From a virus (taxonomy: Duplodnaviria; Heunggongvirae; Uroviricota; Caudoviricetes), in the IMG/VR virus record IMGVR_UViG_2541047961_000008: 38,571 nt of DNA; one strand, 5' to 3'. Under the pieces are notes generated by a model. That model had not been told where the DNA came from. It saw only the letters and a list, made by a program, of their open reading frames with translations, and did no database searches. The translations under genes were made by a program, and so were the position numbers. Positions 3,569 through 9,278 of this stretch are shown piece after piece; the first letter of the stretch is position 1; each line of letters begins with the position of its first letter.

Positions 3569-3810
3569 CCATTCTGGACTACATCGCCGCCAATCCGGGT
3601 TGTAGCGGTGGAGAAATCGCCGCAGCACTGAATACCCCAACCACAGCCATTAATGCGGAGTTACGCCGACTCTGGCGCGACGGCTTAGTCATCAGAGAAG
3701 AACGCAAAACAGGCGGTCGGTTCTCTTACCAGGTAAACCCGATGCCGTTCGGGTGTGGCAACCCACTTACTCACATGTTTAACCAGCTACTGAAGGAAGC
3801 CAGAGCATGA
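3565..3810 (+). CDS. Putative winged-helix DNA-binding protein
   Basis: 81 aa; ILDYIAANPGCSGGEIAAALN...INAELRRLWRDGLVIRE reads as a winged-helix/MarR-like motif; ATGA overlap with the upstream gene. Confidence 0.55.
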   Translation: MTILDYIAANPGCSGGEIAAALNTPTTAINAELRRLWRDGLVIREERKTGGRFSYQVNPMPFGCGNPLTHMFNQLLKEARA

Positions 3811-4106
3811 GCACCATCAACCACCAGGAACTACGCGAACTGGCGACTGACCTGCAACGAATGGCAACGCATCAAAAATTACTGGCGTTTCGCGCAATGC
3901 TCTCGCCGTCTGCTGTGCTGGCACTGCTGGATGAGCTGGAGCACGCCAGAACCACACCTCTCGCCATTCGCCTGACGCTCCGTCATGAAATCGAGGATTT
4001 CTGCGCGACGTTGGAGGCGCCAGGCGAACCGGAAACGCCGGAAGCAATACAGCAAGAGCTGCTGCAACACATTGACAAGGTTTTTGATTTTTTTCTGAAC
4101 CACTAA
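3807..4106 (+). CDS. Hypothetical early protein
   Basis: 99-aa ORF translationally coupled (ATGA) to the upstream gene. Confidence 0.5.
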   Translation: MSTINHQELRELATDLQRMATHQKLLAFRAMLSPSAVLALLDELEHARTTPLAIRLTLRHEIEDFCATLEAPGEPETPEAIQQELLQHIDKVFDFFLNH

Positions 4107-4428
4107 GAAACCAGAACATGCACACACAAAAAAACCGCTTGCCATGCCGCAATCAGTCAGGTTACATTTCCGCTGCACCTCACAAAACGGGTGCCGGGTT
4201 TCGCAGCCTGCTGACTACACAAGCGCACAACCGCGCCAGCGGTTTTTTTGTGCGTACTGTATTGCCACGTTTTTTTCGCGTCAGAATTATGGCGGGGCGT
4301 ACGGGGCCGACTTCGGTCGGGCCGGGTTCTTGTGTAGCCGGTACTGCGAACCTCGTACGTCTCGCCACCCACAGTTTCGCAGCTCTGGATGGTGAGTTTT
4401 CACAACTTACTACACAAGGGGCCACACC
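4107..4428 (+). other. Structured non-coding segment in the early operon (candidate leader/attenuator RNA or sRNA)
   Basis: No convincing ORF; perfect 15-bp inverted repeat cacaaaaaaaccgct (4125-4139) / agcggtttttttgtg (4238-4252); ~76-nt element 4291-4366 closed by a 13-bp stem with an internal hairpin capped by a UUCG tetraloop (4307-4320). Confidence 0.35.
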
Positions 4429-4659
4429 ATGGCAAACCGCAAACCACACCGCGCTATCGCGGAGCGTCGTCACATCCAGACTGAAATCGACCGCAGACTC
4501 ACCCGCGCTGCACACATCGCCTTTATCATGCAATCCAACACATTGCACAGACTCAACAGCACTATTTCAGCCGACTACTGCGCCGCTGTATTCAGCTATC
4601 TGGCGGAAGACCTCCTGTCTCTTCAGGATCTCATCCAGCAGCAAAACAAACTCCATTAA
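4429..4659 (+). CDS. Hypothetical early protein (76 aa)
   Basis: ORF immediately downstream of the structured element; weak aagggg RBS. Confidence 0.5.
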   Translation: MANRKPHRAIAERRHIQTEIDRRLTRAAHIAFIMQSNTLHRLNSTISADYCAAVFSYLAEDLLSLQDLIQQQNKLH

Positions 4660-4731
4660 TTCCTGTTCCGGGCCTTTCCTGCACCTTGCGGCGGGAGGCC
4701 TTCGCACATCTGTAACAAGAGGATTGCCGCA

Positions 4732-5097
4732 ATGATTCTCGCCAACGACTTTCTTGAATACCTGCTCAACACAGAACGTGATCTTGCCGCTCGCGTGCGT
4801 GATCGTTATGACATGTACCTGAAATCCCTGCCTGTACCGCAGCTCGCTGACGGAAAGATTGTTATTGATGGCCGCTACATGATTGACAGCCATGAGGGAA
4901 ATTACAGGCTTTACCGCATTGAAGGTGGCACCCCGTCCGTTATTGGCATTTACCAGCGCCCATCCTCTGCGATCGTCGATGTGATTGCAGACAGCATCCG
5001 CATCACACATCGCCATGCCGACACAGAAGACACCGTGCTGGAAATTCAGCGGCTGGCTACAGTCTGCCGCGACACCCTGAATGGCATGACGAAGTAA
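4732..5097 (+). CDS. Hypothetical early protein (121 aa)
   Basis: Strong RBS aagagga before the ATG; immediately upstream of replicase A. Confidence 0.6.
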   Translation: MILANDFLEYLLNTERDLAARVRDRYDMYLKSLPVPQLADGKIVIDGRYMIDSHEGNYRLYRIEGGTPSVIGIYQRPSSAIVDVIADSIRITHRHADTEDTVLEIQRLATVCRDTLNGMTK

Positions 5098-5103
5098 ATC
5101 ACT

Positions 5104-7926
5104 ATGACGGCAGAGTACATCAGGGACTGGCAACAACCGCGCCACGCAGTGGGACGTGAAGGAACGGGGATCCCCGTTCCTGAATCCGCGCTTTCCTCCT
5201 GGCTGGATGCCTACCGGGCAGAGAACGAGCGCCGCCAGGAAATGGCTGATGCGGCGTTCTCCGCCACGCCGCTGGGCAACCTGATTAATAAAAGCCTGGA
5301 TGCACAGGAAAAACAGGACAAAACCATCACACTGGCAGGAGACGCCAGAAAACAGGTACGCGGTGCGGTGGATGAAGCCATGGCCTCGCTGCGCCTGCTG
5401 CCGTCCTATCTGCGCGATCCGCTTATTCGCCACCTCTCCTTCCTGCGCAAAAAACAGGAAGCCGATCGCCGGAAAGGCAAAAAGAGCTGGCAGGCTGAAC
5501 GCTACGCGCGCGGAACCCTGCGCAAAATATTCGAACGTCTGGACCGCACCGACCACCGCTGGCTGACACCGGGTTATCGCTCCCTTGCCGGACGCGAACG
5601 CCTGGATGATTTGCTTTACCTGCCGCAGCTCAACAAGCACCAGATACAGACGCTGGCCACCATGACGGCGGCGATGTTCAGCAGCACCTTCGAAAAACTC
5701 TGCGATGGCTTTGGCGCGACTGATGGCGAGCTGACCATGGATGTAACGCTGAAGGCGTATCAGATGCTGGCCCGCATGGCGTTACACCTGCACGCCATGC
5801 CTCCGCATTATGACGCACTGACAACAGACAAAGACCGGAGGAACGAACCGGACACGGAGCTGCTGCCGGGCGCAATCCTTCGCCTGACCTGTGCGGAATG
5901 GTGGAAACGCAAACTGTGGCTGTTACGTTGCGAGTGGCGGGAAGAACAACTCCGCGCCGCCTGTCTGGTTTCCAGAAAAACATCGCCCTATCTGAGCCAG
6001 GACGCGTTAAGCGAGTTTCGCGCACAGCGCGAGAAAACACGCGATTTCCTGAAAAGTTTCATGCTGGAAAACGAAGACGGGTTCACGATTGATCTCGAGA
6101 CGGTGTATTACGCGGGAGTAAGTAACCCGGTTCATCGTAAGGCAGAAATGATGGCCACCATGAAGGGGCTGGAACTTCTGGCCGAAGCCCGTGGCGACAA
6201 AGCGGTGTTTCTGACTGTCACCTGCCCGTCAAAATACCACGCCACAACAGAGAACGGTCATCCGAATCCCAAATGGAACGGGGCCACCATGCGCGACTCC
6301 AGCGATTACCTAGTTAACACGTTTTTTGCGGCGGTCCGCAAGAAACTGAACCGCGACGGTCTGCGCTGGTATGGCATCCGCACGGTGGAGCCTCACCATG
6401 ACGGCACGGTGCACTGGCATATGATGGTCTTTGCACATCCGGACGAGATTGAAACCATCGTGTCCCACGTCTGCGATATTGCCATTCAGGAAGACCGCCA
6501 CGAGCTGGGCGATGACATAACTCCGCGTTTTAAGGCGGAGTACGTCGACGGCTCAAAAGGCACGCCAACCAGCTACATCGCCACCTACATCGGAAAGAAC
6601 CTGGACAGCCGCGCCGTGGATGGTATCGACCCGAAAACGGGCAAGCCACGCGTTGACCACGAAACCGGAAAATCAATGGCCGAGAGCGTGGAGCGCGCCA
6701 TCGGCTGGGCGCGCCTTCACCGGGTCCGCCAGTTCCAGTTCTTTGGTATCCCCTCCCGTCAGGTATGGCGTGAACTCCGCCGCCTTGCCAGCCAGATGGC
6801 ACGCAACCCGGAAGGCCCGCAACGGCTGAAGGATGACGCAATGGATGCGGTACTCGCTGCCGCTGATGCAGGATGTTTTGCCACCTACATAGAGAAACAG
6901 GGCGGCGTACTTGTTCCACGCAAAGACTACCTGATTCGCACCGCCTACGACCTCGCCGATGAGCTGAACGATTACGGCGAACAGAGCGTACAGATTTACG
7001 GGATCTGGTCACCACTCATCGGGGAATCCTCCCGTGTGTGCACGCATCCGGATAACTGGAAGCTGGTAAGACGCAAACCGGAAGCGGAAGACAGCGCCCG
7101 CGAAAATGGTTTTGACCTTCAGGGCGGCCCTGCCGCCCCTTGGACTCGTGGCAATAACTGTCCCCGTGTACAGGAAACAGGCAACAGCGGGACAGAACAG
7201 TCGGAAGAACGGCCAGCACCGTGGCCGCAGCTTCCTGACGGCGTTGAAGTGAACGAATGGATGCGCTCACTGAAACGGCACGAACGCCGGGCGCTGATGC
7301 GTTCGCTTCGTGACAAACAGGCAAAAAACAGCAGTGATGAAATGCAGAGCTGGACACAGAGCCGCAAACAGCAGCGGCCTTTGCCTGATAACCACGAATT
7401 ACTCGCTAAAGAATGGCGGGAGTCTGCTGAATCTCTCGGCCTGCATATCGGTGAACAACAGATGCAGCACCTGTTACGGGGCGGCAGCCTGTACGTTGAC
7501 GGCAGCATCATTGCACCGCAGGGATATGAAATTGTACGTAAACCGGATACCCGCCCGGACAGCCGAATCACGCAGCTCTGGCAACGCCTGAGCCGTAACC
7601 ACGGCGTAAGCAGCACGGAGATCCGCCATAACCCGGTCGCCAGCTATCTGGAACAACTAGGGGCATCAGACCCTGAAGCCGCCGCACGCCTGGCATCCAC
7701 ACTTCAGCAAGACCAGAACACCATGAAAACACCCGTTACCGTACTTTCTGACATGCTGCGCGCCATCCGCGACGCAGAGCACGAACAGAGAATCAGTGAA
7801 ACAACTGAACGCGCCCGCCGCAAAGCAGACCTGCTGCGGGGTGGCCTGACCAGTGGAAACAAAAAACAGACAAAAACGGGATTCACAAATCCCGTAAATG
7901 AGCAAAAAACGTGCCGCGATATATGA
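5104..7926 (+). CDS. A: Rolling-circle replication initiator (P2 gpA-like HUH endonuclease), 940 aa with a long C-terminal extension
   Basis: HUH motif (TVHWHMMVFAH) and active-site tyrosine motif (SYIATYIGKN); follows the early operon as in P2/186; C-terminal ~250 aa is R/Q-rich. Confidence 0.85.
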   Translation: MTAEYIRDWQQPRHAVGREGTGIPVPESALSSWLDAYRAENERRQEMADAAFSATPLGNLINKSLDAQEKQDKTITLAGDARKQVRGAVDEAMASLRLLPSYLRDPLIRHLSFLRKKQEADRRKGKKSWQAERYARGTLRKIFERLDRTDHRWLTPGYRSLAGRERLDDLLYLPQLNKHQIQTLATMTAAMFSSTFEKLCDGFGATDGELTMDVTLKAYQMLARMALHLHAMPPHYDALTTDKDRRNEPDTELLPGAILRLTCAEWWKRKLWLLRCEWREEQLRAACLVSRKTSPYLSQDALSEFRAQREKTRDFLKSFMLENEDGFTIDLETVYYAGVSNPVHRKAEMMATMKGLELLAEARGDKAVFLTVTCPSKYHATTENGHPNPKWNGATMRDSSDYLVNTFFAAVRKKLNRDGLRWYGIRTVEPHHDGTVHWHMMVFAHPDEIETIVSHVCDIAIQEDRHELGDDITPRFKAEYVDGSKGTPTSYIATYIGKNLDSRAVDGIDPKTGKPRVDHETGKSMAESVERAIGWARLHRVRQFQFFGIPSRQVWRELRRLASQMARNPEGPQRLKDDAMDAVLAAADAGCFATYIEKQGGVLVPRKDYLIRTAYDLADELNDYGEQSVQIYGIWSPLIGESSRVCTHPDNWKLVRRKPEAEDSARENGFDLQGGPAAPWTRGNNCPRVQETGNSGTEQSEERPAPWPQLPDGVEVNEWMRSLKRHERRALMRSLRDKQAKNSSDEMQSWTQSRKQQRPLPDNHELLAKEWRESAESLGLHIGEQQMQHLLRGGSLYVDGSIIAPQGYEIVRKPDTRPDSRITQLWQRLSRNHGVSSTEIRHNPVASYLEQLGASDPEAAARLASTLQQDQNTMKTPVTVLSDMLRAIRDAEHEQRISETTERARRKADLLRGGLTSGNKKQTKTGFTNPVNEQKTCRDI

Positions 7927-8002: not shown

Positions 8003-8962
8003 ATGAAAATTTGTATCGACGACGGCTCCACCAACATCAAGCTGGCATGGACTGAGAACGGCGAACGCCGCAACGCCATCAGCCCGAACAGCTTCAAGTC
8101 GGAATGGTCTGCGCCGTTCGGTGGCACGCAGCCCGCGAACTACATGCTTGATGACGTGCGCTATGGTTTTGATCCGGTCAGCGATCGCTTTGTCCAGACG
8201 ACCGACACGCAATACCAGTACAGCGATGTGAATGTCATTGCCATTCATCACGCGCTGGTCAAATCAGGCATCACGCCACAGGCGGTGGATGTGGTTGTCA
8301 CCCTGCCACTGAGCGAGTATTTCGACACAAACGCACAGCCGGACATGGCCAACATCAACCGCAAAAAAGCGAACGTTATGCGCCCGGTGGAGTACCAGAA
8401 CGGCGAGGCATTCACTATCCGTAACGCGCGGGTTATGCCTGAATCCATTCCGGCTGGCTTTAAAGCACTGGCTGACATGAGTCCGTTTGAATCCCTGCTG
8501 ATTGTGGATTTGGGCGGAACCACGCTGGATGTGGCAAAGGTTCAGGGGCAACTGGCAGGTATCAGCCAGGTGTTTTGCGATCCACACGTAGGCGTTTCTC
8601 TGATGGCCGATGCCGTGCTGTCGGTGATGGCCACCAACGGTATGCGCACCAGTCACCACATCGCCAATACCATTATCGAACATCGCCACGATGAAGCCTG
8701 GCTGCGCCAGCACATCCACAATGACGCGCATTACGCCAGCCTGATGGCAGTTATTCGTGAAAAGGAAGAAACACTGAAACAACGCGTGATCCGCGCGCTG
8801 GCGGGTTTTTCGGGTTACGGGCGGGTGATGGTTGTCGGTGGCGGGGCGGAGATTGTGGCACCCGCTATCCGCGAAGCCTGCGGAGTTAATGCGACTTTCA
8901 TCGCGGACGGGGTGCCACAGTTTGCTCTGGTTAATGGGCTGTACGCAATGGACAAGGAGTAA
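8003..8962 (+). CDS. parM: Actin-like segregation ATPase, ParM/StbA family
   Basis: 319 aa; N-terminus KICIDDGSTNIKLAW and internal motifs (YSDVNVIAIHHAL, VMPESIPAGF, LIVDLGGTTLD, VMVVGGGAE, LVNGLY) closely track my recollection of plasmid R1 ParM. Confidence 0.85.
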   Translation: MKICIDDGSTNIKLAWTENGERRNAISPNSFKSEWSAPFGGTQPANYMLDDVRYGFDPVSDRFVQTTDTQYQYSDVNVIAIHHALVKSGITPQAVDVVVTLPLSEYFDTNAQPDMANINRKKANVMRPVEYQNGEAFTIRNARVMPESIPAGFKALADMSPFESLLIVDLGGTTLDVAKVQGQLAGISQVFCDPHVGVSLMADAVLSVMATNGMRTSHHIANTIIEHRHDEAWLRQHIHNDAHYASLMAVIREKEETLKQRVIRALAGFSGYGRVMVVGGGAEIVAPAIREACGVNATFIADGVPQFALVNGLYAMDKE

Positions 8963-8966
8963 ACCA

Positions 8967-9278
8967 ATGACGACACCAACCAGACGGATAAGTTTCTATC
9001 TGAAGCCCGCCGCCGTCAAGAACGAAGGCGAAGCATGCGCCTGGCTGGACAGCCTTACACCAGAAGCCCGCAAAAGCGGCCAACGCGTGGCTTTTCTGGC
9101 CGGGCTGGCACTTCTGAAAATGAATCCGGCAGAGGCTTACCGACTGGCTGCATGGGCTGATGATGAAGCGTTATCAGTGACACAAACCAGAGCAGAACGC
9201 CCTGCGACACCTCCAACGCCAACCACACAGATAACCAGCCAGATGGCCGGGAATATCCGGGCGTTATTTCCCGAATAA
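8967..9278 (+). CDS. parR: ParR/StbB-like centromere-binding adaptor
   Basis: 103 aa directly downstream of parM; RRISFYLKP...LDSLTPEARKSG...AFLAGLAL resembles the R1 ParR N-terminal RHH region as I recall it. Confidence 0.7.
   Translation: MTTPTRRISFYLKPAAVKNEGEACAWLDSLTPEARKSGQRVAFLAGLALLKMNPAEAYRLAAWADDEALSVTQTRAERPATPPTPTTQITSQMAGNIRALFPE

Follow-up and report, generated by a model that had tools for sequence, protein, structure and literature searches.

Antisense-RNA immunity systems of the kind considered here have been known since the 1990s, and both of the small RNAs that take part in them are Rfam families. In phages P1 and P7 the c4 RNA is cut from its precursor by RNase P at a GG motif, and its b' block occludes a ribosome-binding site (summarised in PMC5320573). 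The site so blocked belongs to the first open reading frame (ORF) ahead of the antirepressor gene, and heteroimmunity is determined by a' and b' (for summaries see PMC5320573 and PMC12197685). The CI RNA of P4 pairs with seqA and seqC, and the premature termination that this causes keeps the replication genes silent (for summaries see PMC4825925 and PMC3632133). P4 SeqA has a structural homologue in IsrK; the short form of IsrK acts in Gifsy-1 on the isrK-orf45-anrP transcript made by read-through, which is also the precursor of STnc1160 (PMC4825925). Barquist et al. (PMC3632133) noted an 'IsrK-C4 immunity system' in P4, P1, P7, N15 and some lambdoid prophages. We describe here a 322-bp gap between genes (positions 4107-4428) in the early operon of a Caudoviricetes genome, IMG/VR record IMGVR_UViG_2541047961_000008, whose 38,571 nucleotides were analysed as a whole and are referred to below as the window. 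The gap is likely a three-part antisense-RNA immunity cassette of the P4/P1/Gifsy-1 type that silences an epsilon-like gene.

The window represents a P88-type prophage of the P2 family (genus Xuanwuvirus), and the gap is bounded by a 99-amino-acid (aa) Ead/Ea22-like ORF (3807-4106) and a 76-aa ORF (4429-4659). No RNA feature is annotated in the gap in the two database records inspected, and the Prokaryotic Genome Annotation Pipeline (PGAP) places no coding sequence (CDS) there. An initial annotation had described the gap as a structured non-coding segment, which was borne out by the presence of two Rfam RNA families and a conserved fold. The Rfam search that it had suggested was run with covariance models over the whole window and gave only two matches above gathering score, isrK and C4 antisense RNA, both on the plus strand (Table 1). 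The isrK match covers model positions 1-77, and the C4 match is to the full-length model (1-87) with 83.2 bits against a gathering score of 45; the Rfam c4-a1b1 model stayed below its gathering score (20.9 against 46.7).

The predicted IsrK-like fold comprises a first hairpin, a second hairpin with site a1 in its loop, a single-stranded linker that contains site b1, and an intrinsic terminator. An IsrK RNA has a promoter of its own and a terminator that lets some transcription through, and it binds Hfq and activates the read-through mRNA in trans; here a consensus promoter 7 nucleotides (nt) upstream and a terminator-like site are both predicted from sequence. The predicted start near 4175 is the first position of the isrK model, and the distance from the -10 hexamer to that position is 7 nt in the window and in P4 alike. 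The window promoter has as positional homologues both the P4 promoter PLE (TTGCCT-18-TATAGT) and PisrK. The ~76-nt element that had been singled out at 4291-4366 proved to be present, with its CCGAC-UUCG-GUCGG hairpin (UUCG loop at 4312-4315), and its reading as a discrete RNA agrees with the match to the C4 family. Its closing stem extends to 16-17 base pairs (bp) when G-U pairs are counted, and its minimum free energy (MFE) is -47.2 kcal/mol (z = -3.6). Compensatory changes had been named as a check, and RNAalifold, given 18 sequences including P4 and three lambdoid phages, recovers the C4 fold with 27 pairs, 11 of them compensated. The sequence is compatible with the predicted RNase P site (U4290|GGC4291, with A-CCC after the closing stem).

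The arrangement is closest to that of P4 (PLE - seqA - CI RNA/seqB - seqC - kil/eta - epsilon - ... - alpha), where the isrK family matches at seqA and the C4 family at CI. The two share the promoter geometry TTGCCN-18-TAnAnT, 7 nt before the RNA, and the identical order a1b1 - terminator - C4 - a2b2 - Shine-Dalgarno/ATG, and in both an epsilon-family gene and then a replication gene lie downstream. P4 is a satellite, however, whereas the cassette of the window resides in a complete P2-family phage that has a C/Cox switch. In P4 another ORF intervenes between seqC and epsilon, while the epsilon-like ORF of the window comes directly after b2; the P4 replication gene encodes the alpha primase and that of the window an A-type endonuclease; and the spacer from IsrK to C4 is ~108 nt in P4 against 36 nt in the window. 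The 121-aa ORF of the window is without a P4 counterpart, and no homology of it to P4 ORF151 or ORF106 was found.

The immI region of P1 and P7 (P51 - a1 b1 - c4 - a2 b2 - icd - ant), compared for P1 via the literature, has RNA family RF01695 in common with the window and follows a like a'/b' logic, in which b' masks the ribosome-binding site of the ORF that comes first downstream. What is regulated there is an antirepressor, as proposed here, and specificity alleles give rise to heteroimmunity (PMC5320573; PMC12197685). Icd/Ant are regulated in P1 and P7, an epsilon-like protein in the window, where moreover the a1b1 part is a separate, terminated RNA of the IsrK type.

In Gifsy-1 (isrK - orf45/STnc1160 - anrP) and lambdoid phages, whose carriers of the module include Shiga toxin (Stx)-converting phages, mEp460, ST64B and 1720a-02, the module DNA is ~64-67% identical to the window. 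The isrK and C4 tandem occurs in phage P88 and, upstream of Rha/Ant antirepressor genes, in three lambdoid phages, and in the latter it scores above gathering score as it does in the window. The lambdoid module lies in the early lytic operon between cII and the Rha/Ant antirepressor gene, just before the replication genes. The lambdoid phages differ in having a Rha/Ant-type antirepressor downstream and no epsilon homologue, and in a terminator-C4 spacer that is 11 nt shorter; the published model for Gifsy-1 is activation by the short IsrK.

The C4 RNA of the window carries two blocks, a' and b', each perfectly complementary to two sites, one in the IsrK-like RNA and one in the mRNA leader: a' to a1 and a2 over 7 nt, b' to b1 and b2 over 9 nt. 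Neither these sites nor the promoter-like site at 4139-4168 had been noted in the initial annotation. The b2 duplex, with its further G-U pairs, reaches G4420 and overlaps the Shine-Dalgarno sequence AAGGGG (4416-4421), which stands 8 nt before the ATG of the 76-aa ORF. That b2 runs into the ribosome-binding site holds for three groups, as seen in P4 (UUCACAGGAGG...AUG), an Stx phage (CACCAAAGAGG...AUG) and the window (CUACACAAGGGG...AUG).

Selection on this pairing is apparent from alignment A1, for which 60 IMG/VR loci encoding relatives of the 76-aa protein gave 29 distinct sequences of the region 4170-4432. The segment is mostly invariant, all alignment cells in the C4 helices are paired, and variation is concentrated in the six short a/b blocks, where it is matched among blocks. 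Four of the 7 a1-a' pairs and 7 of the 9 b1-b' pairs, 11 of 16 overall, are changed on both sides, with 99.5% and 99.2% of cells paired, respectively. The a2-a' pairing is complete (100%), again with 4 of 7 pairs changed on both sides. Taken together, a2 and b2 are paired with C4 in 98.9% of cells, against 35-49% once the partner is shifted by 1-3 columns, and their covariation score of 0.535 (shuffled mean 0.11) was attained by none of 500 shuffles. Because the covariation at C4 is matched at both target pairs, C4-target pairing is under selection; membership of the two RNA families, the fold and selection on the pairing of each of the four target sites are thereby shown.

The blocks form allele series. 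All fetched P88-like loci together hold 5 a-alleles and 10 b-alleles, freely combined, the b-alleles being at least 2 nt apart within the 9-nt core; adding the lambdoid examples brings the totals to 7 a-alleles, 13 b-alleles and 19 combinations. With few exceptions, a sequence is free of mismatches at each of its four target sites. This pattern points to the a and b blocks as the predicted specificity determinants. A scan of genome contigs with the 76-aa protein alone found no relatives, and one with the alignment found 3 loci only, which bring new alleles and unvaried inverted-repeat arms. The b' allele of the window, sought in IMG/VR outside P88-like contexts, gave 42 matches; among the 11 contigs new to the P88-like set, 10 have the match upstream of an epsilon-like 'MANR...' ORF, and the remaining one is a chance match without a/b sites.

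From the homologues we infer a promoter, processing, translational repression, polarity and an antirepressor role for the 76-aa protein. The promoter at 4139-4168 would initiate transcription at ~4175, and most transcripts would end at 4229-4249 to give a ~75-nt IsrK/SeqA-like RNA displaying a1 and b1. Read-through transcripts, along with transcripts of an upstream early promoter, Pe, would carry the C4 precursor, from which the ~77-nt C4/CI-like RNA (~4291-4367) would be excised, probably by RNase P at U4290|G4291. The b' loop and the a' junction of C4 would then pair with b2 and a2 of the mRNA leader, and the b2 duplex would mask the Shine-Dalgarno sequence and so block translation of the epsilon-like ORF. 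Once untranslated, this C-rich ORF would probably permit Rho-dependent polarity that lowers expression of the 121-aa ORF and gene A. The a1/b1 copy may act in cis or in trans as a competitor (decoy) tuning the amount of free C4, and the a and b blocks would set specificity, with many mutually non-reactive types as the result.

Table 1. Features of the cassette and of the genes behind it, in window coordinates
Feature	Position	Strand	Remarks
Inverted repeat, left arm	4125-4139	+	A7 tract 4128-4134; outside the IsrK-like transcript
Sigma-70-like promoter	4139-4168	+	TTGCCA-18-TACATT; predicted start ~4175
IsrK/SeqA-like small RNA	4175-4249	+	Rfam RF01394, 64.1 bits (gathering score 50)
a1	4200-4206	+	UUCGCAG; complementary to a'; loop of second IsrK-like hairpin
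b1	4215-4223	+	CUACACAAG; complementary to b'; IsrK-like single-stranded linker
Intrinsic terminator of IsrK-like RNA	4229-4249	+	AACCGC-GCCA-GCGGTT then T7
Promoter-like pair	4262-4290	+	TTGCCA-17-AATTAT; directly 5' of predicted RNase P site
C4/CI-like antisense RNA	4291-4367	+	Predicted mature form, ~77 nt; Rfam RF01695 match 4285-4372
C4 closing stem	4291-4306 / 4351-4366	+	
C4 hairpin 1	4307-4320	+	UUCG loop
C4 hairpin 2	4321-4342	+	
b'	4329-4337	+	CUUGUGUAG; loop of C4 hairpin 2; pairs with b1 and b2
C4 single-stranded junction	4343-4350	+	
a'	4344-4350	+	CUGCGAA; C4 junction; pairs with a1 and a2
a2	4376-4382	+	UUCGCAG; mRNA leader
b2	4410-4418	+	CUACACAAG; two further G-U pairs to 4420
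76-aa ORF	4429-4659	+	Short divergent member of the P4 epsilon / 'Derepression' family (PF25738); predicted regulated gene
Genes likely under polarity	4732-7926	+	121-aa ORF and gene A
Gene A	5104-7926	+	Replication endonuclease, 940 aa

The 76-aa protein is 29% identical to P4 epsilon over 66 residues (BLASTP, E = 2e-8), and comparison of its family alignment with P4 epsilon by hhalign gives a probability of 93%. A sister allele, 70% identical, passes the PF25738 gathering score with 32.5 bits, and the same domain occurs in most of the 126 relatives of the 76-aa protein from the database. The protein is likely, by analogy, an antirepressor, and as a member of the epsilon family it would bind and inactivate a P2-type C repressor. 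Its ORF is rich in C and poor in G (C/G 1.95; 37% C and 13% G around 4500-4577), which makes it a plausible Rho entry site when untranslated, and polarity would extend to the 121-aa ORF and gene A. Some IMG/VR loci (L072, L080 and L091) encode an epsilon-like variant that is shortened to 58 aa by an in-frame deletion close to its N-terminus (MANRRLSRASRV...); the RNA module ahead of it is otherwise identical.

Several points weigh against the cassette. Every functional step is carried over by analogy from P1, P4 and Gifsy-1, and since the short IsrK of Gifsy-1 activates and does not repress, the net regulatory sign would hinge on the ratios of the RNAs. The 76-aa protein of the window is below the PF25738 gathering score (21.6 bits against 27). 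A few loci (L015, L026 and L018) have mismatched alleles. Two invariant elements are left unexplained by the cassette model, namely the AATTAT before C4 and the 15-bp inverted repeat. Finally, the frame of the ORF at 4118-4735 is free of stops over 4140-4428 in 36 of 37 variants, and its translation matches the Pfam family PF10554 (Phage_ASH) with 27.1 bits against a gathering score of 26.

In one of the mismatched loci, L015 (2877-2960), the b' of C4 has 2 mismatches to the b1 of this locus and 2 to its b2, and the mismatched blocks make it look like a recombinant. Locus L026 has 1 mismatch at a1, and L018 and L004/L022 have 1 mismatch at b2. All of these may be derepressed or transitional alleles.

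The invariant AATTAT belongs to the pair TTGCCA-17-AATTAT at 4262-4290, which had been put forward as a promoter. The pair is present and matches the consensus at 9 of 12 positions, but its function as a promoter is doubtful; the start would fall ~6 nt inside the C4 closing stem. The Gifsy-1 RNA homologous to C4 depends on the isrK promoter. The AATTAT is invariant in the lambdoid modules as well and contains an AUG that matches in position the start of Gifsy-1 orf45.

It is possible, though we regard it as doubtful, that the mode of Gifsy-1 is the primary one, such that a cis fold of a1/b1 with a'/b' silences the read-through mRNA and the short IsrK-like RNA activates it in trans, the C4 region being mainly a cis element or leader ORF and no trans repressor. 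The MFE structure of the full transcript (4175-4440) does pair a1/b1 with a'/b' in cis, akin to 'structure A' of PMC4825925, and the isrK family is above gathering score with a promoter and terminator of its own. The covariation is three-way, however, and includes a2/b2 at the ribosome-binding site, which a purely cis switch would not need; and the closest architecture, with an epsilon homologue and a PLE-like promoter, is that of P4, where CI acts in trans. Activation by a short IsrK and trans-repression by C4 are mutually compatible.

The inverted repeat was reported in the initial annotation as a perfect 15-bp repeat and is exactly that, CACAAAAAAACCGCT at 4125-4139 and AGCGGTTTTTTTGTG at 4238-4252 with 98 nt between the arms. 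It can be extended to 21 nt with 90% complementarity (4122-4142 / 4235-4255), and the longest repeat in 300 dinucleotide-preserving shuffles of 4107-4428 was 13 bp, short of the 15 bp observed. The right arm is the 3' half of the terminator at 4229-4249, with the T7 tract at 4243-4249. The left arm sits at about -50 to -36 of the IsrK/PLE-like promoter, just 5' of the -35 hexamer, and its A7 tract occupies the position expected of an UP element. The repeat had also been called terminator/antiterminator-like, and only the first half of this is supported: the T7 arm is part of an intrinsic terminator, but the left arm copies the terminator 5' half instead of sequestering it and is therefore not a conventional antiterminator.

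We consider it unlikely that the segment is chiefly a transcription attenuator in which the repeat, as a long-range helix in early-operon transcripts, toggles the 4229-4249 terminator. The repeat is far above chance, and its arms are without variation in every P88-like locus, including those of Escherichia albertii and Salmonella. It also takes part in the MFE structure of 4107-4260, that is, of a transcript starting upstream (z = -4.9), and its helix can form only in transcripts initiated upstream of the IsrK-like promoter. Yet since the left arm mimics the terminator 5' half, either pairing leaves a GC stem beside the U tract; neither arm ever varies, so that there is no covariation; and the left arm was sought in the P4 and lambdoid modules, of otherwise common architecture, and is absent, as is the repeat. 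An attenuator would moreover leave the C4 RNA and the a/b covariation unexplained.

Another alternative pairing was seen further downstream (4361-4401), where UGGUGAG (4389-4395), with UUUUC behind it, offers a different partner to the 3' strand of the C4 closing stem (CUCGCCA). The hairpin so formed encloses a2, has equivalents with U-rich tracts in the P4 and Stx phage leaders, and may be a second attenuator or a processing signal.

It is highly improbable that the segment codes for a Pfam 'Ash' family protein, whether from ORF 4118-4735 or from a shorter ORF beginning at the ATG at 4289, because the open frame and Pfam match given above, the PF10554 matches of the equivalent P4 and lambdoid translations and the reported translation of the overlapping orf45 of Gifsy-1 are offset by variable columns spread evenly across codon positions (29/35/37 in P88-like loci; 26/28/31 against a lambdoid module), by 2- and 11-nt indels separating lineages, by loss of the ATG at 4118 in about half of the contexts, by an overlap of this ORF, out of frame, with the whole epsilon-like gene, by the lack of a PGAP CDS in the gap, and by the RNA nature of the immunity factor of the equivalent P4 region (PMC3632133; PMC4825925).

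A conserved coding frame had been named beforehand as the finding that would tell against a non-coding segment; one frame does remain open, but codon periodicity is absent, and with frame-breaking indels and an unconserved start codon the protein-coding reading was rejected. The ORFs of the gap had been taken for artefacts, and they behave as such: the 83-aa ORF (4144-4395) has only 13 codons in most relatives, and the 205-aa ORF lacks its ATG (4118) in about half of the upstream contexts.

Matches to PF10554 are found at window 4118-4735, in the old 'cI' ORF of P4 (L066, 8168-8584) and on N-terminal extensions of lambdoid Rha CDSs (L064, 1146-2297; L063, 1441-2304; L065, 1147-2304), and in every case they fall exactly over the RNA module. 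With no codon-position bias and with frame-breaking indels, Phage_ASH looks like a translated RNA gene, and we conclude, as far as sequence comparison goes, that it is largely a conceptual translation of the conserved IsrK-C4 RNA locus. 'Ash family' labels stand at the equivalent gap in other records. PF10554 has been used as the epsilon marker in detecting P4-like elements (PMC8628076); P4 epsilon belongs to PF25738 and not to PF10554.

At its left the window encodes an integrase and a C-type repressor, both on the minus strand; Cox comes next, and then a rightward early operon with gene A at its end. After gene A come a ParM-type segregation ATPase and a partition/stability-like gene (8003-8962 and 8832-9278), a plasmid-style maintenance kit within an integrated P2-family prophage. 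A scan of the whole window for tRNA and tmRNA genes found none. The window was also considered as a P4-like satellite, which would have the alpha primase, sid, psu and delta and no structural genes. This identity was rejected, as integrase, C, Cox and gene A are present and the matching records are complete phage genomes of ~34-40 kb. The P4 resemblance of the window is confined to the immunity/epsilon cassette. The 1.7 kb surrounding the gap has a copy of at least 80% identity in 1274 of 5426 complete E. coli genomes, and within the phage collection only P88-like and lambdoid records yielded the module; P2 and 186 did not.

The P2 family includes the helpers exploited by P4. A literature search gave no account of C4 or IsrK in P88/Xuanwuvirus or any other P2-family phage. 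The novel points are a P2-family phage with a homologue of the P4 SeqA-CI-epsilon cassette, and specificity blocks that are strongly and combinatorially diversified. A conserved 'empty' gap, un- or mis-annotated, is now explained, and RNA would give a P2-family phage a second layer of control, exerted on a likely antirepressor and on gene A. P4-like elements have been reported to have very little in common with phages (PMC8628076); that the P4 immunity/epsilon cassette is not limited to satellites bears on the origin of these elements. For studies of how RNA-RNA specificity diversifies, the allele series matched across three sites offers a clean natural data set.

Tentatively, we suggest that the cassettes could make up an RNA-barcoded system of self and non-self, in which two independently shuffled blocks govern which co-resident prophages and satellites derepress each other. 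P88-like phages would draw on a barcode set of at least 5 x 10 alleles and P4-like satellites on one of their own, of 4 x 7, and the system may include direct cross-talk between the two groups. The satellite loci (L111-L190 from IMG/VR), in which epsilon is mostly at least 97% identical to that of P4, show 4 a' alleles, 7 b' alleles and 12 combinations among the 79 loci whose C4 hairpin could be parsed. The P88-like phages and the P4-like satellite set have no a or b allele in common. The P88-like a' GUGGAAA is the exact reverse complement of a' UUUCCAC of P4-like satellites and lambdoid phages, so that the two C4 RNAs could pair together.

The left edge of the module is a mosaic junction (window ~4125; ~4940-4975 in L002, which is P88; L003 and similar loci), with at least 4 upstream contexts. 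The upstream cargo genes of P88 and of many IMG/VR loci end, right before the module, in an intrinsic terminator (GCCGGA...TCCGGC then T7-8), so that the epsilon-like gene and gene A there may depend on the promoter of the module itself. In the P88 record (NC_026014), the RefSeq CDS SF19_gp13 ('hypothetical protein'; 5033-5221, minus strand) lies antisense to the isrK and C4 RNAs and is probably spurious. A full P88-like module with an epsilon-like gene also occurs in a Firmicute-labelled contig, in a record titled Vagococcus sp. WN89Y (L068); this copy is probably an enterobacterial contamination of the assembly.

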